Notes: generated by a model not told the origin, from the letters alone. A DNA stretch of 64,000 nucleotides from a virus (IMGVR_UViG_3300015050_000882:5006-69005), one strand, 5' to 3'; counted from the first letter of the stretch, positions 39,028 to 60,749 are shown. Made by a program: numbers and translations.

Positions 39028-39064
39028 CCGGGGATAAGTTAGCGCCCGGGCACGCTGTAGTCAA
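39028..39064 (-). promoter_or_regulatory. Promoter with overlapping TTATCCCCGG box
   Basis: TTGACT-N17-TAACTT; box 39028-39037. Confidence 0.75.
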
Positions 39065-39078
39065 CTCAGGTCGGTTGC

Positions 39079-40287
39079 TCACACCCCCGGCTTCTTGGCG
39101 CGGGTCAGCTGCGTCTCCAGCACACCCTGGTACTCCACGTGGTCCTTCACGGTCGCGTCCAGGATGTAGGTGTTGCCCACGTCCATGATCCCCTCCCCGC
39201 TCTTGAACCAGGAGAACATGTTGCCCTCAGCGTCCCGCATCTTGTACAGGATGCACTCCCCGTACTGACTGGGGATGCCCCGGTTGGACAGCACGGTCAG
39301 CTCCAGCCCACGCAGGCGCTCCCCGATGGTCCCAACGTGCTTGCTGAGCACGGCCACCTCCCGCTCCCGGCGCTTCAGCTCCAGGACGCCCAGGTGGCGC
39401 TGGTGTGCGGCCACGGCGCTGCAGGCGTATCCCCGGCGCTTGGGCTCCACGACACCGGTGGAGAGGACCATCCACAGGTTCCACATGTACTCGCTGCAGC
39501 CCTCCTTGCGGGCCTCCTCCTCCACCCAGGCCATCGTGGCAGCGGCCTCCTCATAGTCGGCATCCAGCAGGGCAGCCCGCAGTGCAGCACGGTCCTCCTG
39601 TGCAGGCTTGTCGCTGGGGTGGCAGTAGAACCAGGCTGACACCTTGTAGGCAGTCGCCTGCCCCGCTGACTCAGGGGCACTCTTTGGCACCCAGCCCCAG
39701 AGGCGGATGGCCGTGGCCGTTACCGCCAGCAGCTCCAGGGCGGAGTCAGGCACTGAGGCACCCCCGGCCAGCGCCCAGTCATCGGTCCACTCCTTGGCCT
39801 CCCGGAGGAAGCGGAAGCGGGCAGCCACAGACGCGGGAGTGTCCGTGCCCATGTAGTCCCGCAGGCAGGTCCTGCCCACCTGGACATAGGCTCCAGCCGG
39901 GTCCCGGACCACAAAGAGGTCCTTGCGGCTCCGGGCCTTCTTGCAGTGCTCGCACTCGCCTGTGGAGTGGCGGAAGTGCTCAGGCAGCTCCTCCCCCGGG
40001 ATGGCGTCAATGATGGTCCCGGCCTCTGTCCGCTCCAGGCGTGCGATGAACTTGTAGTCACCCACCTTGGGTGCCTCCAGCGTGGTGAATTTCAGGTCGC
40101 AGACCATGACGGTGATCTTGCGCATGTTCTCGTCAAGGCGCACCTCAGGGCGGGGAGCCGACACGGTCCACATGATGCGTGGGGTCCCGTACCGCTCCGC
40201 CTTGGCGGCCAGCTTCTTGAGCTCGTGGACGGCATCCGCGATGCGGCCTGCCAGGACGGTGACTGTGTTGGGGTCTTGGGCTTCCAT
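39079..40287 (-). CDS. Zn-finger plus C-terminal OB-fold-like protein
   Basis: CEHC...VGRTC; HVGTIGER...ATVKDH. Confidence 0.75.
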   Translation of the reverse strand: MEAQDPNTVTVLAGRIADAVHELKKLAAKAERYGTPRIMWTVSAPRPEVRLDENMRKITVMVCDLKFTTLEAPKVGDYKFIARLERTEAGTIIDAIPGEELPEHFRHSTGECEHCKKARSRKDLFVVRDPAGAYVQVGRTCLRDYMGTDTPASVAARFRFLREAKEWTDDWALAGGASVPDSALELLAVTATAIRLWGWVPKSAPESAGQATAYKVSAWFYCHPSDKPAQEDRAALRAALLDADYEEAAATMAWVEEEARKEGCSEYMWNLWMVLSTGVVEPKRRGYACSAVAAHQRHLGVLELKRREREVAVLSKHVGTIGERLRGLELTVLSNRGIPSQYGECILYKMRDAEGNMFSWFKSGEGIMDVGNTYILDATVKDHVEYQGVLETQLTRAKKPGV

Positions 40288-40298
40288 GGCGGTGCTCC

Positions 40299-40568
40299 TC
40301 AGCAGAAGGGTGCGTTGAGATACATGTTCAGGTCGGGATAGCGGGCCTCAGTCAGCGCCTCCCAGGTGCGGGAGGTCGTGACCTGGCCGCCCGCGTATGC
40401 CCGCTGGAAGGCGGTGGACTTGGAGGCGATGAGGGCCACCTGGTCCATGCCCTCCTGGGAGGGCGGGTGGGCTCCAACCCACTCCTCTGCCAGGGGGATG
40501 TAGTGGAGGGCGGGTGCGCCCCGGCCCGTGGCCTCATAGGCGATGGCGATGAGCTCAACGATGGTCAT
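40299..40568 (-). CDS. Hypothetical protein
   Basis: Fills gap; start uncertain. Confidence 0.55.
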   Translation of the reverse strand: MTIVELIAIAYEATGRGAPALHYIPLAEEWVGAHPPSQEGMDQVALIASKSTAFQRAYAGGQVTTSRTWEALTEARYPDLNMYLNAPFC

Positions 40569-40570
40569 GA

Positions 40571-40783
40571 TCAGCGCCCGATCCCGTTGATGTAAGCCTG
40601 GCCGGGTTTGACCCAGTCGGCCACGGCCAGCTGGATGCCGATGCCGCCCACGTCCCGCCAGGCGTTCATGTAGTTGTAGGGGAGCTTCCCCCGGCTGACC
40701 GCCCGGGCGATGAGGCGGTGAAGGTTGCTCCCGGCGGGGAGGATGATGAACTTGTGCGGGTGGGTTCCCATGTCGCTCTTCAT
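40571..40783 (-). CDS. Hypothetical protein
   Basis: ORF track, RBS. Confidence 0.6.
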   Translation of the reverse strand: MKSDMGTHPHKFIILPAGSNLHRLIARAVSRGKLPYNYMNAWRDVGGIGIQLAVADWVKPGQAYINGIGR

Positions 40784-40785
40784 GA

Positions 40786-41157
40786 TCAGGCTCTCCGGTT
40801 GTAGGTGGTGGTGATGCCGATGGCGGCGTTGAGGGCGATGCGGACGCGCTCCATGTCGGTGAGCTTCCCGGCCAGGAGTGCGTTGACCTCTGACTCCTCC
40901 TGGATGGCCCGGACCTTGGCCCGGTTCTCCCGTGCGGCCCTGACCCGGGCCTGCTGCTCCTCAAGGCGCTGGGCCTTGCTCTCCGGGCTGTTGTACAGCG
41001 CCTCTGCGGCCTTCTGGGCCTTGATGAAGCCGTGCTCCCAGAAGTCCCGGGCCTTGCCCTTGGGCTGGAGGAGGCGCTGGGTGAAGCTCTTGCCCTCTGC
41101 GTGGGCGGCTTCCCCGGCCTTGAATGCGGCGGTGAGGGTGGCGTTGTCCATGGTCAC
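40786..41157 (-). CDS. Hypothetical helical protein
   Basis: Coupled ORF. Confidence 0.65.
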   Translation of the reverse strand: MTMDNATLTAAFKAGEAAHAEGKSFTQRLLQPKGKARDFWEHGFIKAQKAAEALYNSPESKAQRLEEQQARVRAARENRAKVRAIQEESEVNALLAGKLTDMERVRIALNAAIGITTTYNRRA

Positions 41158-41339
41158 ACCTCCAGCCAGTCGGTGTCGTTCTGGACGAACAGGGTGCCGT
41201 CTGCGTCGCGGAAGGCGGCGATGTTGTTGCCCCGGTCGATGAAGTATTCAAAGCCGTCCTGGCGGTGGACGGCCAGCCCGGTCGTGCGGGCGGCGATGAC
41301 GGCGGTGGTGGCGGCTGCGGTGGTGAGGGTCGGGTTCAT
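41154..41339 (-). CDS. Small hypothetical protein, first gene of operon
   Basis: AGAAATGGAGCA leader. Confidence 0.65.
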   Translation of the reverse strand: MNPTLTTAAATTAVIAARTTGLAVHRQDGFEYFIDRGNNIAAFRDADGTLFVQNDTDWLEV

Positions 41340-41386
41340 CGGGGTGCTCCATTTCTAGGGCAGGGCCAGCGTGGCCCCACCCCTCC

Positions 41387-41415
41387 TAAATAGCACCCAA
41401 CCGGGGATAAGTCAA
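41387..41415 (-). promoter_or_regulatory. Promoter with TTATCCCCGG box in spacer
   Basis: TTGACT-N17-TATTTA; box 41401-41410. Confidence 0.7.
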
Positions 41416-41446
41416 GCCCCCAGCGACAACTTTCTTGCTGAGTTGG

Positions 41447-42634
41447 CTAAAAATCGGTGCTTGAGTGCCCCGCAATCGGCTTGGACAGGTCAGCGCCCAA
41501 GGCATAGGCGGCCAGCCGGTCCCGGTGGTGGGAAGCCTGTGCCCAGGAGGACAGACCGCCCTTGGCCAGGAATTGCTCATACAGGTGGCCGACCAGCGTC
41601 ACAAGGTCCCCGCCCAGGGCCTCCGCATTCACGAACACGATGCGCTGCCCCGCGTGCCACTGGGCCACCTTCCCCGGCCCCAGGTCGGTGACCACCTGGA
41701 CGTGCGGCCTGATCGGGTCCAGCCCCAGGCGCTTCAGGCTCTCCATCGCCAGCACCAGGCGCTCCTCCTGGCCCGCAGTCAGGCTGGCCTCCCGGAAGTC
41801 CCCCCGGGTCTGGGTGTCGCGGTCCACCATCTTGCGCACCGGGCTGTCCTTGGGGTGGCTGCTGTACCTGGCCTTGGCCGCTGCCAGGAAGCTCCCGGAG
41901 CGGTTGCCGCTGTTGCTGAAGTCCAGCTTGCGGTCCCAGGTGTCCCGCCCGCTCAGCAGCTGGTCGTGAAACTCCGGGCTGTCCAGGGAGGGGATGAGGG
42001 TGGACAGCTTCCACTCCATGTCAAACTGGCTCTCAAAGGTCCGGTCCTCAGTCAGGGTCATCTCGGTGAGGATGTTGTAGCTGAAGGCCAGCTCCTCAGG
42101 GAGCACCCCGGCCCTCACGCCCCGGTAGTACACAAACTGGCTGGGGCCAGCGTACACCTCCAGGCTCTCATTGCGGGCAATCGGCTCCCCCTGGATGAAG
42201 ATGGCAGACCGGGCGTGGAAGATGGCCTCAAAGTCCTCCCCATCAACCTCAATGACGGTGTCAGCGTCTGCGTCCTCCCGGTGGTGGGTGATCTCCCCGC
42301 CCTCATCCAGGCAGTTGCTGTGCAGCTCCCGGTATGCCTGCCACAGCTCCCAGTTGCGGCCCAGAGAGGTCGCAAATGACAGGCGCTCCTCCCCCATGTA
42401 CACAACGTCCACCTCCTGCCCACGGATAAGCTCCGCCCGGGCGGTGAACTCCAGCGGCTCAAAGCCCACCCGGCGGAGCGTGACGCGGCAGCCCTCCCGC
42501 AGGAGGACGGCCAGGCCAAACTTGATGCCGGTCCCGAAGTATCCGATGGGGTTGGGGCGCTCCTTGACCGACACCCCGGAGATGCGGATCAGGTCCAGGT
42601 CCAGGATGCCGGGGTTGCCGAAGTACACAGTCAC
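41447..42634 (-). CDS. GHKL/Hsp90-like ATPase-domain protein
   Basis: IGYFGTGIKFGLAVLLREG. Confidence 0.7.
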   Translation of the reverse strand: MTVYFGNPGILDLDLIRISGVSVKERPNPIGYFGTGIKFGLAVLLREGCRVTLRRVGFEPLEFTARAELIRGQEVDVVYMGEERLSFATSLGRNWELWQAYRELHSNCLDEGGEITHHREDADADTVIEVDGEDFEAIFHARSAIFIQGEPIARNESLEVYAGPSQFVYYRGVRAGVLPEELAFSYNILTEMTLTEDRTFESQFDMEWKLSTLIPSLDSPEFHDQLLSGRDTWDRKLDFSNSGNRSGSFLAAAKARYSSHPKDSPVRKMVDRDTQTRGDFREASLTAGQEERLVLAMESLKRLGLDPIRPHVQVVTDLGPGKVAQWHAGQRIVFVNAEALGGDLVTLVGHLYEQFLAKGGLSSWAQASHHRDRLAAYALGADLSKPIAGHSSTDF

Positions 42635-43146
42635 TTGAGCCACTCCTTGTTGTCGCGCAGGTCCATCAGCATCATGCCCAGGGCATTCTGGCCGGTCCAC
42701 TTCCCGCTGGGCCGGTCCTCCACGACACCCCACACCCGGTCATTCCACGTGTTGCCCTCATAGATGCGGCGCTTGCCGGTCTTGTCCAGCAGCTCCACAA
42801 GGTGCGGGTGCTGGCGAAACTTGGCCACCAGCACCTCCCACATCACGTGGTACTTCTCAGTGTCCCAGTCAGGCCACATCTTGACCTTCTGGCCCCGGAC
42901 CTTGCATGGTCCCGGTCCCTGGGCGTCCCGGACCCAGTGGTGCTCCAGCCGGTTGTCCGCCTTGGCGGCCTGGTAGGCATGCTCACTGGTCTGGTACAGC
43001 ATCGGCCCCCAGCCCACGTCCACCTCCACCGGGGTCAGGGCGAAGTTATCCAGACCGGACCACTTGCCGCTGAAGATGTACATGATGTCCCCCCGCTTGG
43101 GGCGGAAGGTCTGGCTGGGGTAGTCTGCGGCAGTCTTGCGGATCAT
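42631..43146 (-). CDS. NADAR (YbiA-like) family protein
   Basis: TSEHAYQAAK, KFRQHP, EGNTWNDRVWG, GQNALGMMLMDLR. Confidence 0.9.
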   Translation of the reverse strand: MIRKTAADYPSQTFRPKRGDIMYIFSGKWSGLDNFALTPVEVDVGWGPMLYQTSEHAYQAAKADNRLEHHWVRDAQGPGPCKVRGQKVKMWPDWDTEKYHVMWEVLVAKFRQHPHLVELLDKTGKRRIYEGNTWNDRVWGVVEDRPSGKWTGQNALGMMLMDLRDNKEWLK

Positions 43147-43361
43147 GTCTTTCTCCTTGTCATGTCGGCAGGGTGCTTCTGGCCCTGGAAGTTGATGTGG
43201 ATCACGTTCACCTCGTGGCGCTTGCCCCAGACCTGGATGCCCTCCCGGGTGAAGCCCACCTCCAGCTGACCCCAGTCCCGGGGGGACACCCCGTCAGGGC
43301 GCTCCTCCAGGCACAGGCCACAGTGGCAGTAGGCACTGATGTTGAGGTCGTTGCTGCTCAC
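43143..43361 (-). CDS. Small Cys-rich protein
   Basis: YCHCGLC; GTGA coupling. Confidence 0.65.
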   Translation of the reverse strand: MSSNDLNISAYCHCGLCLEERPDGVSPRDWGQLEVGFTREGIQVWGKRHEVNVIHINFQGQKHPADMTRRKT

Positions 43362-44038
43362 AGCGCACCCCCCGGGGTCACGGTCCCGGCCTGGAGGTCC
43401 ACTGACCACCAGAAGCCCATCCCGAACACCTGGCACACCATCCCCGCGTCCCGCCAGTCGATGACGATGAGCTCATCATCCCTCATGCAGGTCACAGCGT
43501 TGGGGGAAGCTCCCTCAATGGCCAGGCGCACCGCCCTCATGCAGGTCACAGCGTTGGGGGAAGCTCCCTCAATGGCCAGGCGCACCGCCCTGAGCGGCTT
43601 GTAGAAGTGCCCACCGGCCAGCAGCTGGTAGATCGCCTCAGGCGTGGCCACCGGCTGGGGGTCAACCTCCATGGCTGCGTCCTCCCCTGGGCGGTCGTCA
43701 GCCAGCCACATCTCGCACAGCTCCCCCAGGCTGAGGGCATCGGGGATGACGATGACATGCTCACCGTGCTGCACCTCCCCGTCCCGGCAGGCGGTCCCCC
43801 GGCGGGTGACCATCCCGGTGAAGCCCTGGTTGTGGAGCAGGCTGTCCCACAGGTGGGCGTCCTGCACCGCCTCCTCCACGTCCTCCCGGACGCGCTGCCA
43901 TACCACCTGCGGCACGCCCTCCTGGCTGTAGGCCCAGACGGTGGCCTTCACCCGGCCATCCAGCTCCCGGTCCACGCTGAGGGTCTGCCCCAGGACCGGC
44001 TCCGCCACCGCGATGGCGATGTTGAGGATGCCCTTCAT
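43358..44038 (-). CDS. Hypothetical protein with 18-aa tandem duplication
   Basis: RAVRLAIEGASPNAVTCM twice. Confidence 0.65.
   Translation of the reverse strand: MKGILNIAIAVAEPVLGQTLSVDRELDGRVKATVWAYSQEGVPQVVWQRVREDVEEAVQDAHLWDSLLHNQGFTGMVTRRGTACRDGEVQHGEHVIVIPDALSLGELCEMWLADDRPGEDAAMEVDPQPVATPEAIYQLLAGGHFYKPLRAVRLAIEGASPNAVTCMRAVRLAIEGASPNAVTCMRDDELIVIDWRDAGMVCQVFGMGFWWSVDLQAGTVTPGGAL
43480..43591. repeat. Perfect 54-bp tandem duplication
   Basis: Units start at 43480 and 43534; CCCT microhomology. Confidence 0.95.
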
Positions 44039-44301: not shown

Positions 44302-44319
44302 GGTGTGTGCTCCTTTGGT

Positions 44320-44761: not shown

Positions 44762-44815
44762 GATGTGCTCCTTGTGTGCGGGGTGGAGGGGAGCCTGCGC
44801 GGCTCCCCCGGGTGA

Positions 44816-45226: not shown

Positions 45227-45269
45227 TTTGGTGCTCCATTTCTGTCGGGCCAGGTGTGGCCTCTCCCCT

Positions 45270-45298
45270 AACTTAGGTGCTGACCGGGGATAAGTCAA
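45270..45298 (-). promoter_or_regulatory. Promoter with TTATCCCCGG box in spacer
   Basis: TTGACT-N17-TAAGTT; box 45284-45293. Confidence 0.75.
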
Positions 45299-45330
45299 GC
45301 CCCCACGGGCAACTTTCTTGCTGAGGTCGG

Positions 45331-45432: not shown

Positions 45433-47043
45433 TCAGCTGACGGTGGCCTCGTGGATTTCACCGATCTGCTCATTCATCGCGCCCAGGGCCTCCTTGACCC
45501 CGTTGGCCGCCCCCTCAGCCGCCATGGCCGACTTGCGTGCGGCGATGACGTTGACAGTGGTGGTTTCGATCAGCGTCTGGCCCAGCTGCTTCATCCGGTC
45601 CTCCAGCTGGCCGGTCGGGAGCATGGACTGGCCCACGACACGCCCAAAGGCAGCCCCCAGCTCGTGCTCAGCGGACAGGGCAGGCGGCGCGTCCTTCAGC
45701 AGGTTCAGGTGGCGCTCCATCCCCTTGGCCGCAACCAGGAGGTCCTTGGCGGTGACCTGCTCGTGGCCGTTGCTGATCATGGCCAGCTTGGACCGCTCCA
45801 CCACCTCACGGATGGTGGCCGGGATGTTGCCGGCAAGGGCCTCGCCAACCTGCGTCAGGTCCTCCCCCTCCTGGACCAGGCCACGGCCATACAGCCGCAC
45901 CAGGCGCTGGACAGCGCCGACACCCGGCGGGTTGATGGTCACAACAGCGTCCAGGCGTCCCGGGCGGAGCATCGCCCGGTCCAGCTTCTCCACGTGGTTG
46001 GTCGTCAGCACCGTGATCACCTGGCTGTTCTTGGTCAGCACGCCGTCGATGGTGTTCAGGATGTCGTTGCCGCGCTGGTCCCGCTTGGACACCGCCCGGT
46101 CCACGTCCTCCGCAAACACCACGGCGGGAGCGTACCGCTGGGCGAACAGCAGCGCATCCTTCAGCGCCCGGACATCGTCCAGCAGGATGTAGGTCCAGCC
46201 GTTGTCCACCGCCACCTTGGAGGTCACGTTGGCCGTCATCGTCTTGCCGGTGCCATAGGTGCCCTCCAGCAGGACGCCCCGGTTGAGCGGGATGCCGTGC
46301 TTGATGCAGGCTGCGGTGTTCTGGATCGGTGCCCAGAGAGCCGCCTTGACCTGGTCCAGCTCGTCATCGTTCAGGATCAGCTCCGCCGGGTTGATGTAGC
46401 TCGTGCGCAGGAAGGTGGGCGGTGCGCTGAAGTCCAGGTCACCGTCGCTGTCCACCTTCAGGCGGATGGCCTTGCCCTTGTAGATGCTGCCACCGGCCAG
46501 GATGCCCCGGGCAATCTCCGCCAGCTCCTTGACCACCGCCGCCTCACGCTTGCGCACGGTCCCGGTGATGACCAGCACCATCATCCCACGGTTGTCGCGG
46601 TGGCGGTGCAGCTCAATCGGGTTCTCCACGCCCGGGAGGGTGAACTGGCCAAACGCCACCTGGACGCTGTCGCCAATCTCCGGGCCGGTCTGGACGGTGA
46701 TCAGGTCGGGCGACACCGGGCCAAACCAGGTCATCTTGGGGGTCGCGCTGGCCCAGCCGTACTTCTGGCGCATCGCGGCGTTGATGGCCACAATCGCGTC
46801 CTCCGGGAAGGCGTCCAGAACCTCGTGGACATCCAGCGTGGTTTCCTCATCCGCCGCCTTGCGCTCCAGCGCGGCGATGGCATCACGCAGGCCCATCGGT
46901 GCCGGGGAGGCAGGCAGCGTGATCTTGGTCCCGGCGTGGTCGATGCCCACGTCAATGTTGTCCCAGGACTGCTTGCCCGACGCCATGTTGGCAAGGGCCT
47001 CAGCGATACCGGCCTTGATGGCCGCAGACATGTCGTTTTTCAT
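45433..47043 (-). CDS. AAA+ ATPase (FtsH/CDC48-like domain, no protease)
   Basis: GTYGTGKT, FAEDVD, TTNHVEKLDRAMLRPGRLD. Confidence 0.9.
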   Translation of the reverse strand: MKNDMSAAIKAGIAEALANMASGKQSWDNIDVGIDHAGTKITLPASPAPMGLRDAIAALERKAADEETTLDVHEVLDAFPEDAIVAINAAMRQKYGWASATPKMTWFGPVSPDLITVQTGPEIGDSVQVAFGQFTLPGVENPIELHRHRDNRGMMVLVITGTVRKREAAVVKELAEIARGILAGGSIYKGKAIRLKVDSDGDLDFSAPPTFLRTSYINPAELILNDDELDQVKAALWAPIQNTAACIKHGIPLNRGVLLEGTYGTGKTMTANVTSKVAVDNGWTYILLDDVRALKDALLFAQRYAPAVVFAEDVDRAVSKRDQRGNDILNTIDGVLTKNSQVITVLTTNHVEKLDRAMLRPGRLDAVVTINPPGVGAVQRLVRLYGRGLVQEGEDLTQVGEALAGNIPATIREVVERSKLAMISNGHEQVTAKDLLVAAKGMERHLNLLKDAPPALSAEHELGAAFGRVVGQSMLPTGQLEDRMKQLGQTLIETTTVNVIAARKSAMAAEGAANGVKEALGAMNEQIGEIHEATVS

Positions 47044-47085
47044 CTTGTAGTGCTCCATTTCTCTTGTTTGGTCCCCAGCTCTGTA

Positions 47086-47128
47086 CCGGGGATAAGTCAG
47101 ACTAGCTTCACTCCACAGGGCGGGTCAA
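47086..47128 (-). promoter_or_regulatory. Promoter with TTATCCCCGG box at the start site
   Basis: TTGACC-N18-TAGTCT; box 47086-47095. Confidence 0.7.
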
Positions 47129-49394: not shown

Positions 49395-49677
49395 TGTGTT
49401 GCTCCATTTCTCCCGGACCACCCGGGCTGTCTGACTTTATCCCCGGTCCACCGTCCCGGTCAAGTGCCCCGCATTGTCGCAGCATCCGCCTGAGGCCAGC
49501 GCGGGTGTTCTTGTCCGATCTGCCCCGGCCCTGGTTGGAGGTGCAGATGTATCCGTACTCAACGCCCAGCCAGACCCAGCACACCTTCCAGTGGTGGTCT
49601 GTCCGCTGCGTCCAGAAGGCGATGCCCAGGGCACGCATCTCCCGGACTGCAGTGTCAAGGGGCGTGTCCCGGGCCAT
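49267..49677 (-). CDS. Small basic protein, HicA-like pattern
   Basis: HHWKV, SDKNTRAGLRR; 3' part overlaps next gene. Confidence 0.5.
   Translation of the reverse strand: MARDTPLDTAVREMRALGIAFWTQRTDHHWKVCWVWLGVEYGYICTSNQGRGRSDKNTRAGLRRMLRQCGALDRDGGPGIKSDSPGGPGEMEQHNAHNQTGGTGTGAGPRDGGREGSGQPRHHRQGEGGCRPQRGR
49434..49463 (-). promoter_or_regulatory. Promoter with inverted TTATCCCCGG box
   Basis: TTGACC-N18-TAAAGT; box 49437-49446. Confidence 0.7.
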
Positions 49678-49679
49678 CG

Positions 49680-52037
49680 TCAGAACGGCTCCTTGTAGTC
49701 CTCAGCCTCATCCACAGGCCAGGGATAGGGGCCACCAAACTTGTTGTCCCACCAGGCCCGACACGCCTTGAGGTCAGCCGTCTCATAGAACCACACCCGC
49801 GCCCGGTTGACCTCCTCATGGCCAAAGCGGTCCTGGGTGCTGACATCAGCATAACGCTGGAATGACCTGGGCTTCCCCGGCGGCATAACCTTCCTGAGGA
49901 AGCGGCCCAAGTGGGTCGGGTTGGCCCTGTACATGATCTTTTGCTGGTCGCACCAGCGTGTGTAGTCAGCCTGGAGGTCCCCCTTGCTGAGGATTTCAGG
50001 CCAGCCGTGGTATCCGTGGCACAGCTTCCCGTCCTGCAGCTTGTCATACCACCAAGCCTCCTCAGTGTCCAGGCTCAGCAGCTTCTGCTCCTGCAGCGCG
50101 ACGGTCTTGGGGAACTGGCGCACATCAAAGCCGGTCAGGTCCCGGGTCATCAGGAAGTGCAGCAGCGCCTCCCGGCCCCCGTTGTCCAGCTCCTGGTGTA
50201 TGGCCTTGAAATATGCCTTGTCCTGCATGTTCCCGTCGCCCACGTCCAGCATGAAGTACCGGCGCTCATCGGCCCCGGCGGGCACCACCCAGTCCCCGTT
50301 GGAGGCCATCATCAGGTGGACAAAGTTGGGAGCCGCCTCAGCGTCCACGCCCTTGCCCTCAATCATGATAGTCTCCTCAGTGACCATGGTCTTGAGGATG
50401 GCCTCGTGCTTCTTGTCGCCCGCATAGAACGCCTCATCAGCGAACAGCACGACACAGTCCCTGAGGTGGGCGTTGAAGCTCCCCACCAGGTGCTTGGAGT
50501 CACTGACCTGGAGGAAGTGGCGGCCCCAGAGGGAGCCAAACGCCTTGACCAGCACGCCCTTCCCGGTGCCCATCCGGCCCCTCAGGACCACAGCCACCTC
50601 TCCCGGCGTGTCCGGCTTCTGGACGCATCGCGCCATCCAGTTGATCAGGTACTCGCTGTGGACCGGGTTGCCTGAACAGATGTTGTCCCGCAGGTGGGCC
50701 AGATACTTGTCAATGACCCCGGGCCTGGCCTCACAGGCAAAGCCCTTCCACAGGTTGTAGCTGTCCTTGACCTCCCGCCCGGGCGCAAACACAATGGTCT
50801 TGTACTGACGGCGGTGGGTGTGCTGGAGCCACCACTTGCCCAGGGGAGCCGTGATGTCGTGGCCGTCCTTCTTGCCGATCAGGACCTGTGTATTCATGTA
50901 GCGGTTGCGGAAGTCCTCAAAGCTCTGGCGGCTGATCCGCGTGCGCTGCAGCGCATGGTCCATGATCTCACTGATCACCCGGCACTTGCCCCCGATGTCC
51001 TCAATGACAGCGTGGTCCTCATTGAGCCGCCGCAGGTGGGGGTCAATCGCCTCCTCCCGCGCCCGCTGTATCTGGCGGGCAGCGTACTGCTGAGGCCTGG
51101 GCTGGTCCAGGACGTGGCCGCTGATCTTGTAGTCCGGGTCCAGGATGACCGCCGCAATCTGGTCGTCAGTGCACCCGGCCCGGACCATCTCGCACAGGAC
51201 CCACCAGGCGGCTTCAGACCTGGAGGCATAGCGCCCGGGGTCGTCAGCATCAAAGCCCTGGACAATGAACGCCTTGAGCCGGTCGGACACCTTGGGCCCA
51301 AGCTCATCTAGGCTCTCCAGCCGCGCCAGGTTGCCGCTGATCTTGACCGCTGGCCCAGAGGAGCCAGCCGACTGCACCCGGGGAGCCGGGGTGAACTCCT
51401 TGAGCTGATAGATGCGGGACCAGTCCACCTCCACCACTTTTGAGAGGCAGACCACCCGGCCCTTTGACCGTTTCTTCTTGTTGGGCAGGTTCACGGTCCC
51501 GGGCAGGCGCATGATCCGGTCAATGTTGTGACAGGCATCGGCCTGAAGCAGTATCTCCACCTGGAGGTTGTATGCCTCCAGCTCCTCAGCCTTGTCCTCA
51601 CTCCCGTTGGTGATCTGCTCCTCAGCCAGGAGCCAGAAGCCCTGCATGCCGCCGCCGCTGTCGATGATGACCGTGGGTCGCGGCTTGAAGTCCTGGAGGA
51701 GCTTCAGCGCCCGCTCCCGCTCCTTGTCAATGTCCTCCCCCACCCTGGGGTCCACGTCCACGTGGATCGCCCGCATGCCCCGCATGTCAGTCTTGAGCGG
51801 CTTGGAGGTCGCTGGCCGGATGACTGTGTTGACGGTGAAGTAGATGTTTTGCTTGCCCTGCCGGTCCTCAATCCACCGGGCCATCTCCATCACCTGCTTG
51901 TTGGTGAAGGTGGCCGTGTTGGTCCGGTCGTCAGGCCCCATGTCCGGGAGGATGGAGGTCAGGACCCAAGGCCCCTCCTCACACCAGCCCTGGAGGAAGC
52001 CCACTGCCTCTGATGTTGACCCCTTGATGTCCGTCAT
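49680..52037 (-). CDS. Primase-helicase (RepB-like primase plus SF3/NrS-1-like helicase)
   Basis: VDVDP, IDSGGGMQGFW, DRIMRLPGT; GRMGTGKG, FADE, MASN, DERRY. Confidence 0.88.
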   Translation of the reverse strand: MTDIKGSTSEAVGFLQGWCEEGPWVLTSILPDMGPDDRTNTATFTNKQVMEMARWIEDRQGKQNIYFTVNTVIRPATSKPLKTDMRGMRAIHVDVDPRVGEDIDKERERALKLLQDFKPRPTVIIDSGGGMQGFWLLAEEQITNGSEDKAEELEAYNLQVEILLQADACHNIDRIMRLPGTVNLPNKKKRSKGRVVCLSKVVEVDWSRIYQLKEFTPAPRVQSAGSSGPAVKISGNLARLESLDELGPKVSDRLKAFIVQGFDADDPGRYASRSEAAWWVLCEMVRAGCTDDQIAAVILDPDYKISGHVLDQPRPQQYAARQIQRAREEAIDPHLRRLNEDHAVIEDIGGKCRVISEIMDHALQRTRISRQSFEDFRNRYMNTQVLIGKKDGHDITAPLGKWWLQHTHRRQYKTIVFAPGREVKDSYNLWKGFACEARPGVIDKYLAHLRDNICSGNPVHSEYLINWMARCVQKPDTPGEVAVVLRGRMGTGKGVLVKAFGSLWGRHFLQVSDSKHLVGSFNAHLRDCVVLFADEAFYAGDKKHEAILKTMVTEETIMIEGKGVDAEAAPNFVHLMMASNGDWVVPAGADERRYFMLDVGDGNMQDKAYFKAIHQELDNGGREALLHFLMTRDLTGFDVRQFPKTVALQEQKLLSLDTEEAWWYDKLQDGKLCHGYHGWPEILSKGDLQADYTRWCDQQKIMYRANPTHLGRFLRKVMPPGKPRSFQRYADVSTQDRFGHEEVNRARVWFYETADLKACRAWWDNKFGGPYPWPVDEAEDYKEPF

Positions 52038-53591: not shown

Positions 53592-55637
53592 TCACGCAGC
53601 TTCTCCCCAGGAGGGTCCCACCTCAACGTCCACCCGCATGGGGACGCGCATGGGGATGATGTTGATCATGATCTGCGCAGCCTCCTCAGCGTACTCCCGG
53701 GAGGGAGTGCTGAAGTCAACCTCATCGTGGACCTGGAGCTGCAGGGCGATGCCCTGGCGGTCCATCTCAACAATCGCGGCTTTGGTCTGGTCGGCTGAGC
53801 TGCCCTGGATCAGGCGGTTGAACGCCTTGTGGCACCAGTCATAGCTCCCATCCTCCTTCAGGGGGAAGCGGCAGCGCCTCCCGCCGATGGTGAGGATGAA
53901 GCCTTTTTGGGCAGCCTTCTGCTCACAGGCCTTGGCCATCTTGGCGATGAACGGCACCTCACGGTCAAACTTGTCCATCAGGGCCTGGCCCTCAGAGCCA
54001 GCGGCCTCCCAGACACGTATCTTGAACCCGGCCTGGCGGCCTGCCTCAGCCTTGACCTCCACCTCCTCCCGGGTCGCATAGTCGGCTGTGCGGCGGTCCC
54101 GGCCCTCTCCCCAGGACAGTCTCCAGCAGGTCGGCATGCCCAGGTCGCGGCAGAGCTTGGCCCCGCCCATCCCATAGCTCAGGCCCAGGTAGATGTTCTT
54201 GCAGTACTTGCGGAGCTGCTTGAAGGCGTCCTTGCCCAGGCGCTCCAGGACGTCATCCCCGTGGACCATCCGCGTCATCATGTCGTGGAAGTCGGTGGTG
54301 GGGTCCTCATTGTACCGGCGGGCAGCGTCCAAGGCAGCCCGGTATGCCGCCTCACCGATCAATCGCGGCCCAGCCTCACAGGCGAAGTGGACAGCGTGGC
54401 GCGGCTCCTGCTGGCTGTAGTCCAGGCTGGCCCAGAGCATCCCATCATCGGGCATGTAGATGGATCGCCACATGGGGCCAATCTCTGGGTCCCGGGCTGG
54501 CTGGTTCTGGAGGTTGGGGTCAGCTGAGCTCAACCGGCCATAGGCGGCTCCCTCAGTCTCCCCGCTCCCGTCATCCTTCTGGCGGCGCAGCTGGTTGAAG
54601 GTGCAGTGGATGCGGCCCCGGATCAGGTGGTGCCGGGTCCCGTCAACAAAGGTGGACCGCAGCGTTGCCATCTTCTTGGCGCGGCGCAGGTGCTCCCCCA
54701 CTGGGTGGTCGATGCTGTCCATCACCGCCGCCGTGACGCTGTCCTTGCCCTTGGCGGTCTTGGGCAGGGTCACCCCCAGGTCGGTCAGCACCTCAGCCAG
54801 CAGGGCGGTCTTGGTGATGTCGGTCACCTCCAGCCGCCGGGTGATCAGCGCGTTGACCTTGTCGATGGCCAGCTGCTGTTCCGCCCGCGCCCATGCGTCC
54901 ACCTGGGCCAGCCGGTCCTCTGAGACGGCCACGCCCCGGCGGCGCATCCGCACCAGCACGGGCAGCACCTTGCTCTCCAGGTTGTACACGTCCCACAGGC
55001 CCTGCTCATCAATGGTCCGCTCCTGGCGGCGCAGCAGGGTAAGGGGCAGGCGGGCATCGTGCTCTGCATAGGCCCCCACGTGTCGTGCCGGGAGTGCCCA
55101 GATGCCGCCCTTGCGGTTGTTCCCGTGGTATCCGTAGCTGGCCAGGGCCTCGGTGAGCAGGCGCTCATCCTTCCCCGGGATGCCCGCCCGCTGGGCAATC
55201 GCCTCCAGGCTGTAGCTCATGTGCAGCTCGTTGATCAGCGGGTCGGCCACCTGCACGTCCCTGAACCACTGGGCCTCCTTGAACTCAATCCCCTCCTCAG
55301 CAAGGAAGTCCAGGTCATAGCCCAGGTTGGCTCCGCACACCTGGCCGGTGAAGCCCTTGGCCATGTCGGCCAAGTACCGCTGGACCTGGACAGGGTCCAT
55401 GTTCCCCCCGCCGCCGTGGCGCATGGGGAGGTAGAATGATGGGCCGTCCTCAATGGCAAAGGACACCCCGGCGATGTAGGCACCACGGCGCACGCCCGGT
55501 CCCATCGTGGTCAGCAGCTCATCCCGCGTCTCAGTGTCAATGCCGACGCGCCCGGTGCCCCAGGAGGTCGGGAGGTCTGACATTGAGGGAGGGGTCCAGC
55601 TGCTGTCCGGCTCAAACAGTGGGAGCTGGGCGGCCAA
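53592..55637 (-). CDS. polA: Family A DNA polymerase with 3'-5' exonuclease
   Basis: IDTET, DYSQQEPR, KNIYLGLSYGMG, QVHDE; TTG start after GGAG. Confidence 0.95.
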   Translation of the reverse strand: MAAQLPLFEPDSSWTPPSMSDLPTSWGTGRVGIDTETRDELLTTMGPGVRRGAYIAGVSFAIEDGPSFYLPMRHGGGGNMDPVQVQRYLADMAKGFTGQVCGANLGYDLDFLAEEGIEFKEAQWFRDVQVADPLINELHMSYSLEAIAQRAGIPGKDERLLTEALASYGYHGNNRKGGIWALPARHVGAYAEHDARLPLTLLRRQERTIDEQGLWDVYNLESKVLPVLVRMRRRGVAVSEDRLAQVDAWARAEQQLAIDKVNALITRRLEVTDITKTALLAEVLTDLGVTLPKTAKGKDSVTAAVMDSIDHPVGEHLRRAKKMATLRSTFVDGTRHHLIRGRIHCTFNQLRRQKDDGSGETEGAAYGRLSSADPNLQNQPARDPEIGPMWRSIYMPDDGMLWASLDYSQQEPRHAVHFACEAGPRLIGEAAYRAALDAARRYNEDPTTDFHDMMTRMVHGDDVLERLGKDAFKQLRKYCKNIYLGLSYGMGGAKLCRDLGMPTCWRLSWGEGRDRRTADYATREEVEVKAEAGRQAGFKIRVWEAAGSEGQALMDKFDREVPFIAKMAKACEQKAAQKGFILTIGGRRCRFPLKEDGSYDWCHKAFNRLIQGSSADQTKAAIVEMDRQGIALQLQVHDEVDFSTPSREYAEEAAQIMINIIPMRVPMRVDVEVGPSWGEAA

Positions 55638-55914
55638 CCTTCTTCTCCAATTCAATGACGGTGTTGGTGCGGGCAGCGCCCACCTTCTCAACCGCGTGCC
55701 TCACAGTGGTCCGGTCGCGCCCAAAGACACGCCCAAGCTCAGCCCAGGACACCCAGGGATACAGGAAGTGGGTGAGGTAGATCGCCAGCATGCGGGCATC
55801 GGCCTCTGGCTTCAGCCCGCGCTGCTCAGACAGGATGGCCGACTCAGGCACCCCGGTCGCGTCCCAGACCACCTTGAGGATGTTGGTGATGTTGATGACA
55901 CGCACCCTGGTCAT
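55612..55914 (-). CDS. Standalone DnaA domain IV-like HTH protein
   Basis: ARMLAIYL...SWAELGRVFGRDRTTVRHA versus DnaA IG..FGGRDHTTV.HA. Confidence 0.8.
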   Translation of the reverse strand: MTRVRVINITNILKVVWDATGVPESAILSEQRGLKPEADARMLAIYLTHFLYPWVSWAELGRVFGRDRTTVRHAVEKVGAARTNTVIELEKKVGRPAPTV

Positions 55915-57044: not shown

Positions 57045-57568
57045 CCCTCAAACCGCGCCCAGCCGTCCAGGCGCACCTCCTTGATAAGCTCCCGGACCAC
57101 CGCCGGCAACTCCCCCATCTCTGCGCGGGCATCCCAGCTCTTGTCCATCTCCCGGCGCATGCCTGAGACAGACTTGTTGCCCATCTCCTCCTGCTCCAGG
57201 CACCACAGCCACAGCTCCAGGCTGTCGGCGCAGCGGAGCTTCACCCAGTCCGCATCGGACAGGGAGTGCTCATCAGGTATCTGGAGGGCCAGGAACACGT
57301 CCCGCTCCTCCTTCTCCAGTCCATCGGCCAGCCCCGGGAGGCGCTTGATGGTCGGTGAGGGAATGTCCCCGGTGTGGCGCTCCGGCACGTCATGGAACAT
57401 GGCGAAGTCCACCAGGTGCCGGTCCTCAGGCCAGAGGAGCCGGATCAGGACGCACACGCCCCAGGAGTGGCCCCCGTTGGTGTAGCTCTGCCCCACCTTG
57501 GGCCACATGTGGCACCGCTCCACCATCCCGGATTCACGGATGTACTTGATGCGATCAGACAGTTTCAC
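57032..57568 (-). CDS. HD-domain nucleotidase (YfbR-like)
   Basis: VERCH, HSW, FHDVPERHTGDIP, ADSLE. Confidence 0.85.
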   Translation of the reverse strand: MKLSDRIKYIRESGMVERCHMWPKVGQSYTNGGHSWGVCVLIRLLWPEDRHLVDFAMFHDVPERHTGDIPSPTIKRLPGLADGLEKEERDVFLALQIPDEHSLSDADWVKLRCADSLELWLWCLEQEEMGNKSVSGMRREMDKSWDARAEMGELPAVVRELIKEVRLDGWARFEGWLT

Positions 57569-58607
57569 CGGCAGCCTCCTTGGCCTTTGCGGCCGCAGCA
57601 TCGCGGTTGGCCAGCCAGAGCAGCGCCCCGGCCCTCCAGTCGCTGTCCTTGGGCATCTGGTCCAGGACTTCCCGGGCGGCAGCGGAGCCGTTGGCCTTGA
57701 AGGCGCGGTGTGCCATGACCATCGGGCAGGCCACCCTGCGGAGGAAGCTGTTGCGGATGCCGATGCGGGCGGGGTCCTCCATGAACATCGCCAGGTCCTG
57801 GTCAAACTCCTGGGTGTTGAAGCCGTCATGGAACATCGGGGTGGGCTTGACGGTCCCGGCCTGGTAGGGGTCAGGCGCAAACTGCTCCTGGGTCTCATCC
57901 ACGCCCCAGGGCCACTCCTCCCCGGCCTTGCCCATCGTGGCCAGGTATCCGTGGAAGTTGTTGCTGATCTGGAAGTACTGCCCAACAGGCACCCCGATTG
58001 CGGCGGCCAGGTACTCCTGCAGCACGCTGAAGTGGACCGCGTTGGCCCCATAGGCCCCCCAGACCATGTCGTTGGACCGGCAGAACACCGTGATGTCCAG
58101 CGCCCCCTCGGGGTTGACCGCCGGGAGGACCATCAGGTTGCAGGGGATGTCCCGGCCCCCGTTGTCCGCCGCGTCCTGGTCGGTGTTGGCGTCATACATC
58201 TGGATGGTCACCCGCCGGTCCAGCTTGTCAGCCTTCAGGCGCTTGATGGCCCAGGCCAGCTGGTCACGCCCGAAGTGCTGCCGCCAGCGGTGGCCATAGG
58301 CCCCGGGCTGGGTCTTGCCGCCGTCATCGCTGTAGTTGGCCATGCGCGGGACAAAGGGGAGGAGCGGTGCCAGGTCGTTGCGGCCCGCCAGCATCCAGAG
58401 GCTCTCAAACAGGTGGAAGAAGGGGTTGGCATCCCGCCCCGGGTGGAGCAGCACCCGCTCGCTGGGTGCCTCATACACCGTGGTGACAGGGTATGCCGCC
58501 CGGAGCACAGGCCCGTTGCGGCTGTCCTGCTCAACGCCCTCGTGCCGGAGCAGCTGAGCCCCGGCCCAGAGGGCGTGGTTGACGTTGCGTGCGCCGATGG
58601 TGATCAT
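57555..58607 (-). CDS. dUMP hydroxymethylase (thymidylate synthase fold)
   Basis: IPCN, CRSNDMVWGAYGANAVHF (Asn, dUMP-specific), SNNFHGY; cluster context. Confidence 0.85.
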   Translation of the reverse strand: MITIGARNVNHALWAGAQLLRHEGVEQDSRNGPVLRAAYPVTTVYEAPSERVLLHPGRDANPFFHLFESLWMLAGRNDLAPLLPFVPRMANYSDDGGKTQPGAYGHRWRQHFGRDQLAWAIKRLKADKLDRRVTIQMYDANTDQDAADNGGRDIPCNLMVLPAVNPEGALDITVFCRSNDMVWGAYGANAVHFSVLQEYLAAAIGVPVGQYFQISNNFHGYLATMGKAGEEWPWGVDETQEQFAPDPYQAGTVKPTPMFHDGFNTQEFDQDLAMFMEDPARIGIRNSFLRRVACPMVMAHRAFKANGSAAAREVLDQMPKDSDWRAGALLWLANRDAAAAKAKEAAGETV

Positions 58608-58768
58608 GCGAAGGCTCCCTGAAAGACACTGCCCAGGAGGTAGGCGCGCTGGCCCCGCCGCCACTGGATGGATGTACAGGCGTCCCGCGCCCGGGCGGCT
58701 TCCCCAGCCTCTTGAAGGAGGCGCATGCGCTCCATCTGAAGCTCAGGGGTGGCTGGTTGTTCACTCAT
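58604..58768 (-). CDS. Small hypothetical protein
   Basis: AGGAG RBS; coupled. Confidence 0.5.
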   Translation of the reverse strand: MSEQPATPELQMERMRLLQEAGEAARARDACTSIQWRRGQRAYLLGSVFQGAFA

Positions 58769-58778
58769 GTCAGTCTCC

Positions 58779-59789
58779 TCAGAAGGTCTGGCGGCCAGGG
58801 ACATACAGGGAGCGTGGCCTGCCCTCCCCCGTCCTGGCCCGAAGCCACTTGTCAGTCTCACACAGGCAATTCTGGATGTCAGAGAGGTCAATGGGCGGGA
58901 CCCAGGGTGCCCGCTTCTCCCCCTGCTCATCGAACAGCGCCCGCATCTCCTCCAGCCCCTGCGCCTGGGACAGGCTGAAGTCCACGTCCCGGCCATGGAG
59001 CCGGTTCAGCCCCCGGCGGGACCCAGGCCCCAGGGCAGCCCACGTGTTGATGTCGGTGGCGTTGCGCAGGAGCCGCGTGTGGCGCATGTCCACCACCACC
59101 TGGTACGCCATGAAGGGTCCCCAGCCGATGTACCGCTTGTCCTGGAACCAGCCCCAGACCTGCTCCAGGGTGTGGCCCGTGTTGTCATTCATCGCCCTCC
59201 AGCCGCCCCGGTCCTCCCAGAGCCGCCCCAGGACAATCCGGGCGATGTACTGCTGCTTGGTCCAGCTGTACCACTCCGCCTTGGGGTTGCTCTCCGCCCG
59301 GATCATGTAGGAGCCAGTGTACACCTTCTTGCCCAGGGCAGACCAGACATCCAGCGCGTCCCCCATCCACGCAGGCTCAAAGCCGACGCGGGAGGGCCAG
59401 CTGGGCAGGTCGTTGTTCTTCTGCCCCGGGAACACCTTGGTGTTGATCAGCCAGGCCAGGGTCTCAGGCCAGTTGATGTACCGGGCGGTGGCCAGCATGA
59501 ACCAGAGGTCAGGGTGGTCCTTGAACGGCTCCCGGATGTGCCGGTCAATCCACATCGTCACCCGGTCCAGCTCCCGGAACACGTTGCAGAAGCTGAACTG
59601 CGCCAGAACGGGGTCGCTGGTCAGCGGGCCTGTCTCCCGCATGGCGTAGTGGTCAGGGTCAGCCTCCTCCAGGTCAGCGCCCAGGGGAGCGTGCACGTCA
59701 CCCGCGTCCACGCCCCGGCGCAGCTCCTTGCGGATGTAGATGGCGTGGCGCTCGTTGACCCACTGCCAGAAGGGAGCTGAGTCAATCAC
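58779..59789 (-). CDS. aGPT-Pplase1 / 5-hmdU DNA kinase helical-domain family
   Basis: VNERHAIY, FCNVFRELDRVT, GWGPFMAYQVVVD, GPGSRRGLNRL, QNCLCETDKW. Confidence 0.85.
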   Translation of the reverse strand: MIDSAPFWQWVNERHAIYIRKELRRGVDAGDVHAPLGADLEEADPDHYAMRETGPLTSDPVLAQFSFCNVFRELDRVTMWIDRHIREPFKDHPDLWFMLATARYINWPETLAWLINTKVFPGQKNNDLPSWPSRVGFEPAWMGDALDVWSALGKKVYTGSYMIRAESNPKAEWYSWTKQQYIARIVLGRLWEDRGGWRAMNDNTGHTLEQVWGWFQDKRYIGWGPFMAYQVVVDMRHTRLLRNATDINTWAALGPGSRRGLNRLHGRDVDFSLSQAQGLEEMRALFDEQGEKRAPWVPPIDLSDIQNCLCETDKWLRARTGEGRPRSLYVPGRQTF

Positions 59790-60093
59790 AGAAAGCCTCC
59801 CCCACCAAGGAGCGTTCAAACACCTGGAGCAGCACCCGCCGGTCGGCAGGCTCCCCAGGGTATCCCGACACCGCCGCCGCCACACCCATCAGGGCAATCT
59901 CAGCCGCCACCAGCTGGGGGTCAGCCTGGATGGACCGGGCCAGCTCCTGGAGCTCACGGCTGTCGTGGAGCTTGCGGCAGGCCATGATGTACTCATTGCC
60001 GAACCTGACAATCATCTCCTTGGGGATGGCAGCATCCAGCCTCACAGCCCTGAAGCCGTCTGGTGGCTCCGGTGCGTGCGGATCATCAGACAT
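59782..60093 (-). CDS. Hypothetical protein
   Basis: Coupled ORF. Confidence 0.6.
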   Translation of the reverse strand: MSDDPHAPEPPDGFRAVRLDAAIPKEMIVRFGNEYIMACRKLHDSRELQELARSIQADPQLVAAEIALMGVAAAVSGYPGEPADRRVLLQVFERSLVGEAFCD

Positions 60094-60685
60094 GTCCCAT
60101 CTCCTCCAGGGTGTTCATCAGGTCCTGCTGGGCCCGGTCGTGGCGCAGCAGGACTGTTGCGATGCCCGCCGCCTCAAACTTGGCCCTGGTCGCCAGGATG
60201 GCCTTGATCTTGTCCTTGACCAGGTCCACCTTGATGTCCCGGACCTTCCCGGCCTTCTCCTGGCGGCCCTTGATCCGCTCCAGGCACAGCTCCAGCGGCG
60301 TGTCCAGGTAGGCCACCAGAACTTCCCCCCGGTTGAACCCGCTGAAGAAGTTGAGCCAGCTCCCCGCGACGGTGGAGGCCAGCACGCCCTCGCACACGAC
60401 ATGCTTGGGTGGGCTGGGCAGATCGGTCGCGGCCCGCAGGACAGCCTTCTGCTGGAGCTCAAAGCTGGGGATGGTGTCCATGCCCCCGCATCCCTGGCGA
60501 TAGCTCCCCACGGCCAGGAAGTGTCCAGGGAAGCCCCAGCCCTCAACAGAGGAGCGGCGCTTGGGGTCCTTCTTGGTCGGGTCGTCATACCAGACCAGGT
60601 CAACCGGCGCAGCATTCGGGTGGAGGAGCGTGCGGGCCAGCGTGGTCTTGCCGCTGCCGTTGGTTCCCCTGATGTTGATGATCAC
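60086..60685 (-). CDS. P-loop nucleotide kinase of hypermodification clusters
   Basis: IRGTNGSGKT, GGMDTI, VVCEG, LDTPLELCLERI. Confidence 0.85.
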   Translation of the reverse strand: MIINIRGTNGSGKTTLARTLLHPNAAPVDLVWYDDPTKKDPKRRSSVEGWGFPGHFLAVGSYRQGCGGMDTIPSFELQQKAVLRAATDLPSPPKHVVCEGVLASTVAGSWLNFFSGFNRGEVLVAYLDTPLELCLERIKGRQEKAGKVRDIKVDLVKDKIKAILATRAKFEAAGIATVLLRHDRAQQDLMNTLEEMGHV

Positions 60686-60719
60686 TTGTCATTCTCCATT
60701 TCTGACAGTCAGCCCCCGG

Positions 60720-60749
60720 AGCCTATCCCCGGGGTGCAGGGTCGGTCAA
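60720..60749 (-). promoter_or_regulatory. Promoter with inverted CTATCCCCGG variant box
   Basis: TTGACC-N18-TAGGCT; box 60723-60732. Confidence 0.6.

Follow-up and report, generated by a model that had tools for sequence, protein, structure and literature searches.

Which protein reads a short sequence that recurs in the promoters of a phage, and to what effect? The question is raised by a 64,000-nucleotide stretch of viral DNA (IMGVR_UViG_3300015050_000882:5006-69005, hereafter the window), which makes up 64 kb of a 69,005-bp phage genome (G000; 64% G+C) and in which the minus strand is the coding strand of all genes. The promoters contain a 10-bp box that resembles the binding site of the replication initiator DnaA, and one gene encodes a stand-alone DNA-binding domain IV of DnaA, referred to here as DnaA-IV. 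A first-pass annotation had combined the two into a regulon in which a re-specified DnaA module represses early promoters and may also mark the phage origins. On the evidence set out below we lean, with modest confidence, towards the box as a 9- to 10-bp asymmetric cis-regulatory site in the sigma70-type promoters of a phage clade that hypermodifies its thymidines, most likely read by the phage's own DnaA-IV protein, the promoters most likely being turned down. Thus the proposed module retains an operator-like box, a domain IV with an altered contact residue, and their co-occurrence in relatives, whereas repression is only the likelier sign and the marking of origins is not upheld.

The box, TTATCCCCGG, or its inverse, CCGGGGATAA, occurs in exact form at 39028, 41401, 45284, 47086, and 49437, and a variant, CTATCCCCGG, is found at 60723; all of these positions had been listed in the first-pass annotation and were recovered. 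The five exact copies compare with 0.01 expected, a count reached in 0/100 dinucleotide-preserving shuffles, and 14 matches against 2.6 expected are found in the window when one mismatch is allowed, which bears out the supposed enrichment over background. Two more exact copies lie in the 5 kb to the left of the window (genome positions 1134 and 4253), giving seven in the whole 69-kb genome. All seven are located inside promoters of the form TTGACY-N17/18-TAnnnT, read on the minus strand, which stand 11 to 45 nt upstream of a conserved leader, AGAAATGGAG(CAC). Three placements are used: the forward box fused to the –35 element (TTGAC followed directly by TTATCCCCGG; 45293, 41410, and genome position 4253), the forward box on or directly after the –10 element (39037, 47095), and the inverse box, whose TAA opens the –10 element (CCGGGGA-TAAnnT; 49446, the variant at 60732, and genome position 1134). 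The overlap with promoters at varied positions and in both orientations, claimed earlier, could thus be verified coordinate by coordinate. Every exact copy overlaps the –35 element or spacer, the –10 element, or the start region, and several transcription units are involved; the box is a real, strongly over-represented promoter element that is positioned like operators. Two promoters previously described as box-less, at ~1673 and ~4880, have identical hexamers and indeed no box within the promoter (a one-mismatch box, CCGGGGATAT, lies 13 nt upstream of the –35 element of the former), so the box is an add-on and does not belong to the promoter proper. The positions of these and other features are collected in Table 1.

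Table 1. Promoters, genes, and repeats of the phage, numbered from the first nucleotide of the window unless marked otherwise
Feature	Position	Strand	Remarks
Promoter TTGACC-N18-TAGGCT	60720..60749	minus	Inverse variant box CCGGGGATAG at 60732-60723
Promoter TTGACC-N18-TAAAGT	49434..49463	minus	Inverse box 49446-49437 gives the TAA of the –10 element
Promoter TTGACC-N18-TAGTCT	47086..47128	minus	Followed by gac and forward box 47095-47086 over the start-site region
Promoter with upstream AAGAAAGTTG	45270..45319	minus	–35 TTGACT fused to forward box 45293-45284; –10 TAAGTT
Promoter with upstream AAGAAAGTTG	41387..41436	minus	–35 TTGACT fused to forward box 41410-41401; –10 TATTTA
Promoter TTGACT-N17-TAACTT	39028..39064	minus	Forward box 39037-39028 overlapping the –10 element
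Leader 10-nt elements	60694, 53521, 49402, 47053, 45234, 41347, 39007, 6686, 4832, 3067	minus
DnaA-IV gene	55612..55914	minus	100 amino acids (P0001); signature GRDRTTVRHAV; Pfam Bac_DnaA_C
DUF3489 protein gene	L010:3128-3880 (genome coordinates, left of the window)	minus	250 amino acids; C-terminal winged helix
Amino-acid:DNA transferase (ADDT)	60723-61607	minus
5-Hydroxymethyldeoxyuridine (5-hmdU) DNA kinase protein (HMUDK)	60086-60685	minus	First of two
5-hmdU DNA kinase protein	58779-59885	minus	Second of two
Thymidylate-synthase-like enzyme (ThyA-like hydroxymethylase)	57555-58664	minus
Family A DNA polymerase (PolA)	53592-55691	minus
DUF5906/RepB-type primase-helicase	49680-52037	minus
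Noncoding repeat, copy 1	6764..7045	minus	Near-box TTATCCCCCG at 6786-6795; judged outside the box system
Noncoding repeat, copy 2	34906..35188	minus	Near-box TTATCCCCCG at 34928-34937; judged outside the box system

The candidate reader matches the Pfam family Bac_DnaA_C (PF08299) over the whole profile (E value, 9e-13; 48.5 bits against a cut-off of 31.5; profile positions 1 to 69 of 69) and aligns to the DNA-bound domain IV structures 1J1V and 3PVP. Its AlphaFold2 (AF2) model has a predicted local distance difference test (pLDDT) score of 90.3, and the top 10 Foldseek matches in the PDB are all DnaA (1J1V, template modeling [TM] score 0.72/0.76; 3PVP, 0.69/0.72; probability, 1.00). Going by profile and predicted fold, the product is a complete stand-alone DnaA domain IV with arginine in place of H434, in agreement with the RDRTTV motif noted earlier. 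The AAA+ domain III and domains I and II are absent, and because it consists of domain IV only, the protein is not a DnaA initiator. PHROGs has no family for it; stand-alone Bac_DnaA_C proteins are nevertheless common (450 matches, most with RDRTT), and the gene is already annotated as “DnaA” or “DnaA-like” in Pseudanabaena phage Pam3 and in Rhizobium phages.

The gene and the box are found together in nine complete or near-complete genomes (G000, Pam3, G001 to G005, G007, and RHph_I65) and in several metagenome fragments. Bac_DnaA_C is present in all eight carriers other than G000, and the DnaA-IV gene lies directly upstream of PolA in every carrier. Pam3 encodes a 97-amino-acid homologue (GRDRTTIRHAV) in this same place and has exact boxes at its promoters, including a double box upstream of gene 38; G001 to G005 and G007 (49 to 64% G+C) have Bac_DnaA_C in 6/6 cases and 3 to 11 exact boxes each; RHph_I65 has both gene and boxes; and metagenome contigs that encode homologues of 44 to 51% identity agree in both synteny and boxes. 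Only Pam3 was found by a near-identity search of the phage collection and by tblastn with the DnaA-IV protein, and a locus search of viral contigs with the 100-amino-acid protein gave no match; the Rhizobium phages were reached via a PolA search, and a search of viral contigs for the pattern “box, 8 to 38 nt, leader” recovered many contigs. Four of the latter (G006, G008, G009, and G010) were rejected as chance matches with no genes in common with the window and are not counted as absences, and the contigs for P0004, P0006, P0010, P0013, and P0020 were left out as too short.

Outgroups were obtained through PolA at 44 to 53% identity, namely, the metagenomic G011, G013, G014, and G015 and Pseudomonas phage YuA. 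Bac_DnaA_C and TTATCCCCGG are both absent from 5/5 of them, and they retain the gene order, the leader, and the upstream promoter element AAAAAGTTG; in G011, a DUF3310-like gene adjoins PolA, and the DnaA-IV gene is cleanly missing between the two. Persistence of the box in relatives without the gene had been named in the first-pass annotation as an observation that would speak against it; the five gene-less relatives are box-less, and all gene carriers have the box. The cultured carriers infect a cyanobacterium (Pam3, Pseudanabaena) and Rhizobium (RHph_I65); because carriers with hosts of two phyla share an invariant box, a host-encoded reader is unlikely, and one encoded by the phage is to be expected.

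A catalogue of 70 sites from eight carrier genomes (at most one mismatch, located upstream of the leader) delimits what is being read. Its information content is limited to T-T-A-T-C-C-C-C-G-(G/C), 9 to 10 bp, with background level on either side, and position 9 is G in 69 of the 70 sites. The box is invariant across genomes of 49 to 69% G+C whose DnaA-IV proteins share 33 to 51% identity; intergenic fractions, which depend on calling from third-codon-position G+C (GC3), are relied on for G000, Pam3, G001, and G002 only, the lower-G+C genomes being unreliable in this respect. The consensus, TTATCCCCG(G/C), matches the DnaA box, TTATCCACA, at 7 of 9 positions (1 to 6 and 8, including all of TTATCC), as stated earlier, and by our own estimate the chance of such likeness is ~0.005. 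Compared with the DnaA-box 9-mer TTATNCACA, it differs at positions 7 and 9. Judged by its sequence, the element is DnaA-box-like and not a true DnaA box; the canonical TTATCCACA occurs as a single copy, in G004, among the eight carrier genomes counted (RHph_I65 left out).

The sites recur singly, as direct pairs 27 to 28 bp apart, as convergent pairs, and as an abutting palindrome. Direct pairs flank the –10 element (cTTGAC-box-N8-TAnnnT-aggac-box) in G001, G003, Pam3, G007, and RHph_I65, and inverse boxes in the catalogue always share TAA with the –10 element. The palindrome, TTATCCCCGGCGGGGATAA, is located at the promoter 3′ of the transferase gene, heading the gene string that contains the DnaA-IV gene. 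In G000, this promoter (60720..60749) drives the HMUDK...ThyA-like...DnaA-IV...PolA string, and its orthologues 3′ of the ADDT gene have the same or a palindromic double box in Pam3, L003, G001, G002, G004, G005, G007, and RHph_I65. Box promoters also serve the nucleotide-modification and replication operon that includes the DnaA-IV gene, and the label of early promoters in the first-pass annotation is not supported; the promoter at 47086..47128 lies upstream of an AAA+ gene (45433-47058). Such freedom of orientation and spacing in a short asymmetric site is what one would expect of a monomeric reader, DnaA domain IV being an example.

A residue-level comparison is compatible with such a reader. 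In two papers that cite the DnaA-DNA structure, the base-specific residues of Escherichia coli DnaA are given as R399, P423, D433, H434, T435, and H439 (PMC2533591, PMC7561715), and a third describes R399 as reading the 5′ TTA in the minor groove and helix 434-451 as reading the 3′ TnCACA in the major groove (PMC5742627). Of the six residues named, the equivalents of R399, D433, T435, and H439 are kept in the homologue alignment (4/6); the R399 equivalent, R32, is invariant in the phage family. H434 is replaced by R in 18 of 20 aligned homologues (one of the others has H and one K), P423 by A, S, or other residues, and L438 usually by R. These changes are compatible with an altered specificity: the kept half of the box (TTATCC) would correspond to the kept contacts, and the changed 3′ half to the changed ones.

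We propose that DnaA-IV would bind the box as a monomer, as domain IV does on the DnaA box, with the R399 equivalent reading the retained 5′ TTA in the minor groove and the recognition helix, starting with R in place of H434, reading the changed 3′ part (CCCCGG instead of CCACA). Occupied sites, whether after the –35 element or over the –10 element or start site, single or paired, would probably block RNA polymerase and lower operon output, and with the DnaA-IV operon among the targets a negative feedback would result. Because the sites fall within the polymerase footprint, repression by occlusion is favored, most clearly where an inverse box has the –12 to –10 bases in common with the –10 element or a second box covers the start site; the near-consensus –35 elements and the existence of box-less promoters with the same hexamers also point to repression. 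If the protein does bind, it probably represses rather than activates.

Several observations weigh against this proposal, and some of them concern the sign of regulation. The registers of the box relative to the –35 and –10 elements are rather fixed, and the homologous promoter class of YuA, an upstream AAAAAGTTG followed by CTTTACTTCTTCGGA...CACTATACTTCTT, is active during infection but not by itself (PMC10914365), a behavior in line with a positive cofactor as much as with a repressor. It is conceivable, if rather unlikely, that DnaA-IV reads the box as a positive factor, recruiting or redirecting the host RNA polymerase as a phage-specific promoter cofactor. The YuA promoters are true start sites in infection that are silent in a promoter trap, and the genome annotation together with PMC10914365 suggests a phage-encoded factor; transcription activation, with contacts to RNA polymerase, has been proven for the DnaA-like helix-turn-helix (HTH) proteins GafA and GafY (PMC9638019, PMC11150451); and the –10 hexamers of the box promoters are minimal (TAnnnT). 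An activator, however, would have to work from within the polymerase footprint, where the sites take three registers and either orientation; inverse boxes overlap the –12 to –10 bases needed for recognition by sigma, and the start site is covered by second boxes. The –35 elements are near consensus, and promoters with identical hexamers exist without a box. YuA, moreover, has neither gene nor box, so its cofactor would be something else.

The other adverse observations concern the identity of the reader. In the PolA tree, all of the carriers group in a single clade (100/100 support), so the correlation of gene and box represents one gain or loss event rather than repeated independent evidence and could be a coincidence of ancestry. 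The shared module, in addition, encodes a second conserved DNA-binding candidate besides DnaA-IV, the DUF3489 protein (annotated “penicillinase repressor” in Pam3; gp08 in YuA). Its HTH is extremely conserved, and the protein is no less conserved than DnaA-IV; its gene, the first sizeable one after a box promoter in all carriers, follows that promoter, often a double-box one, directly in 8 of 9 carrier genomes and by ~380 bp, after small open reading frames (ORFs), in G000, an arrangement that resembles autoregulation. Its wing region differs in the box-less G011, so that a changed DUF3489 specificity could also explain the distribution of gene and box. Small conserved ORFs of undefined role are further conceivable readers.

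We therefore considered whether another factor, be it the DUF3489 winged-helix protein, an unrecognized small phage protein, or a host protein, reads the box, with DnaA-IV serving replication beside PolA, for example, by origin marking or interference with host DnaA. The location of the DnaA-IV gene in a replication and nucleotide module would suit such a role. We regard this alternative as rather unlikely. DUF3489, its HTH helices largely intact, is retained in YuA and G011, neither of which has the box, and the only other repeated motif, AGTTAAG, is retained in two noncoding regions of YuA, which lacks both box and DnaA-IV; neither tracks the box, whereas DnaA-IV does, and no alternative DnaA-IV target is visible, the canonical DnaA box being nearly absent from the eight carriers counted. 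A reader other than DnaA-IV would also leave the 7/9 match to the DnaA box unexplained. When all G000 ORFs were screened by profile, only three were present in 8/8 box genomes and 0/5 box-less genomes: DnaA-IV, a MazG-like enzyme, and a 94-amino-acid ORF (3305-3589). The last was rejected as a reader despite its presence/absence profile, as it ends in an acidic tail of the single-stranded DNA-binding protein (SSB) type. This ORF, ending GDDDDPPF, directly follows a Pam3-gp34-like gene (3586-4272) and may either encode a small protein of its own or be the shifted 3′ end of an SSB-like gene.

That the box has no dedicated reader, and is either built into the promoter or leader or left over from the duplication of promoter cassettes, is very improbable: several box promoters are clearly paralogous cassettes (e.g., 45345-45215 and 41462-41330) and inverse boxes always share their TAA with the –10 element, but information drops to background right outside the 10 bp while the flanks diverge, the box stays invariant over the range of G+C and protein identity given above and appears in three registers and both orientations, and the sister clade, whose promoter layout is the same, lacks it altogether.

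The elements that surround the box have a wider distribution. The leader contains the ribosome-binding GGAG and occurs in 14 genome copies, 6 to 10 nt ahead of start codons; it is common to the whole clade as well as YuA and G011, with hosts of different phyla, and its conservation exceeds the need of a plain Shine-Dalgarno sequence. The upstream element AAGAAAGTTG (AAAAAGTTG in relatives) stands ~12 to 20 nt before the –35 element (45310-45319 and 41427-41436 in the window) and is also found in the box-less promoter class of YuA and G011; it may be a UP-like element or the site of a second factor. Between the AAA+ gene and the promoter at 45270..45319, the minus strand has a strong intrinsic terminator (45369-45339), in which CTTTTCTTCC follows a 12-bp stem.

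DnaA itself offers the closest comparison for a DnaA-IV regulator. As a transcription factor, for example, in autoregulation of the dnaA promoter, it shares with the phage protein the fold, a 9-bp asymmetric site with TTATCC-C in common, sites in or near promoters, and, as predicted for the phage protein, monomeric recognition in either orientation and a negative feedback on its own operon. The phage protein differs in being a domain IV alone, with no AAA+ or oligomerization domains, and in its H434-to-R change and variable P423; its candidate box ends CCCCGG and not CCACA, and its candidate targets are a set of phage promoters and not an origin. GafA and GafY likewise use a DnaA-domain-IV-like HTH, also in small stand-alone forms, for transcription control of a phage-derived element (gene transfer agents), and the RDRTT-type signature, common among stand-alone relatives, is a likeness to this group. 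Both activate transcription from sites located upstream of the promoter, through contacts with sigma or omega and together with a sigma-like partner (GafZ or the GafA C terminus; PMC9638019, PMC11150451), whereas the phage boxes lie inside the core promoter; Pfam scans of the window ORFs (non-structural genes) gave no sigma-like partner, and the reported GafY element, which contains ACTATG, is unlike the phage box.

Outside the DnaA family, many copies of a short asymmetric site are likewise spread across the genome of the temperate mycobacteriophage L5, whose repressor gp71 is a monomer-type reader of many operators and “stoperators” at and near promoters. It belongs to an unrelated protein family, and the stoperators lie in one orientation within transcription units, whereas the boxes described here are confined to core promoters in both orientations. 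The “cofactor-dependent” promoters of YuA (Yuavirus; NC_010116 annotation, PMC10914365) are the counterpart in the sister clade, where the gene order, the AAAAAGTTG upstream element, and the GAAATGGAG leader are the same and a conserved promoter class likewise recurs at equivalent positions; this class has CTTTACTTCTTCGGA...CACTATACTTCTT as its conserved sequence, and TTATCCCCGG and the DnaA-IV gene are lacking. In the literature, we found no account of the box, nor of a phage regulon that depends on a domain IV of changed specificity, and a search for the box sequence returned only unrelated primer matches. Although DnaA as a transcription factor and GafA/GafY are precedents, such a regulon appears to be new and well supported by comparative genomics, and a small stand-alone DnaA domain that most likely reads promoter boxes would be a new use of a replication-initiator domain.

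If confirmed, the DNA-binding domain of an initiator would have been detached from the rest of the protein, given a new specificity through one or two contact-residue changes, and put to work as a phage transcription regulator with a regulon of its own. In Pam3 and the Rhizobium phages, a gene that bears only the label “DnaA” or “DnaA-like” would gain a function, and there would be a direct handle on how domain IV encodes specificity. The two partners would form a natural minimal regulator-operator pair (100 amino acids, 9 to 10 bp, monomeric) that seems functional in hosts as unlike as cyanobacteria and rhizobia and would have appeal for synthetic biology. Taken together with YuA, such a regulator would suggest that sister clades use different factors at equivalent promoter positions, which would help with the question of the Yuavirus “phage-encoded cofactor.”

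A more doubtful idea is that the change of specificity is an adaptation to the phage's own hypermodified DNA, the domain IV regulator reading its sites with or without bulky C5 groups on thymidines. In the canonical DnaA box, the major-groove part includes thymine-methyl contacts. Positions 5 to 10 of the phage box (CCCCGG) have no thymine on either strand; the thymines of TTA (positions 1 to 3) would be read from the minor groove by the conserved arginine, and T4 lies in the canonical major-groove portion (5′-TnCACA-3′). With thymine-free positions 5 to 10, the H434-to-R change, and the loss of P423, the protein could read its sites despite thymidine modification. If so, it would be a transcription regulator tailored to hypermodified DNA and portable between hosts of different phyla.

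The first-pass annotation had also seen a box core in both ~290-bp repeats and suggested that it may mark the phage origins. A near-box, TTATCCCCCG, is present in each repeat, but it breaks position 9, the conserved G of the catalogue, and is outside the box system. The near-boxes occur in G000 alone; in seven relatives, the corresponding repeats have AGTTAAG/CTTAACT clusters and no box. Boxes as origin marks were rejected on these grounds. A second repeated motif, CGTCTTAACTT/AAGTTAAGACG, is clustered in two ~300-bp noncoding repeats per genome; binding of DnaA-IV to the AGTTAAG repeats was likewise rejected, as the motif is kept in YuA, which is without the DnaA-IV gene. The two repeats are low in G+C (~290 to 350 bp), one upstream of the helicase module and the other upstream of the structural module, and every relative has two such regions, with dense CGTCTTAACTT/AAGTTAAGACG sites in both orientations and an AT-rich stretch. 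The YuA annotation puts promoter-trap-active sigma70 promoters in its AGTTAAG regions. Iteron-type origins or early control regions are possible roles for the repeats, with DUF3489 as a candidate reader of the AGTTAAG motif.

The non-structural half of the genome is a thymidine-hypermodification and replication module, which also encodes dCMP deaminase, a MazG-like protein, and an Rv2179c-like exonuclease and is common to Pam3 and the Rhizobium phages RHph_I65, I72, and TM26; the structural genes of G000 are unlike those of Pam3. The hypermodification set spans 57555-61607 (ADDT transferase, two 5-hmdU DNA kinase proteins, and ThyA-like hydroxymethylase). An Nmad5 gene, which relatives carry, was not seen in G000, and a clear ORF is absent from 57045-57554. 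An Rfam scan of the window gave no match. The primase-helicase is labeled “integrase” in Pam3 and RHph_I65; no integrase domain was found in the G000 protein, and the label of this DUF5906 protein looks like a misannotation. Finally, the ORF at 43358-44038 contains a perfect tandem duplication of 54 bp, with two 100% identical copies at 43480-43587.

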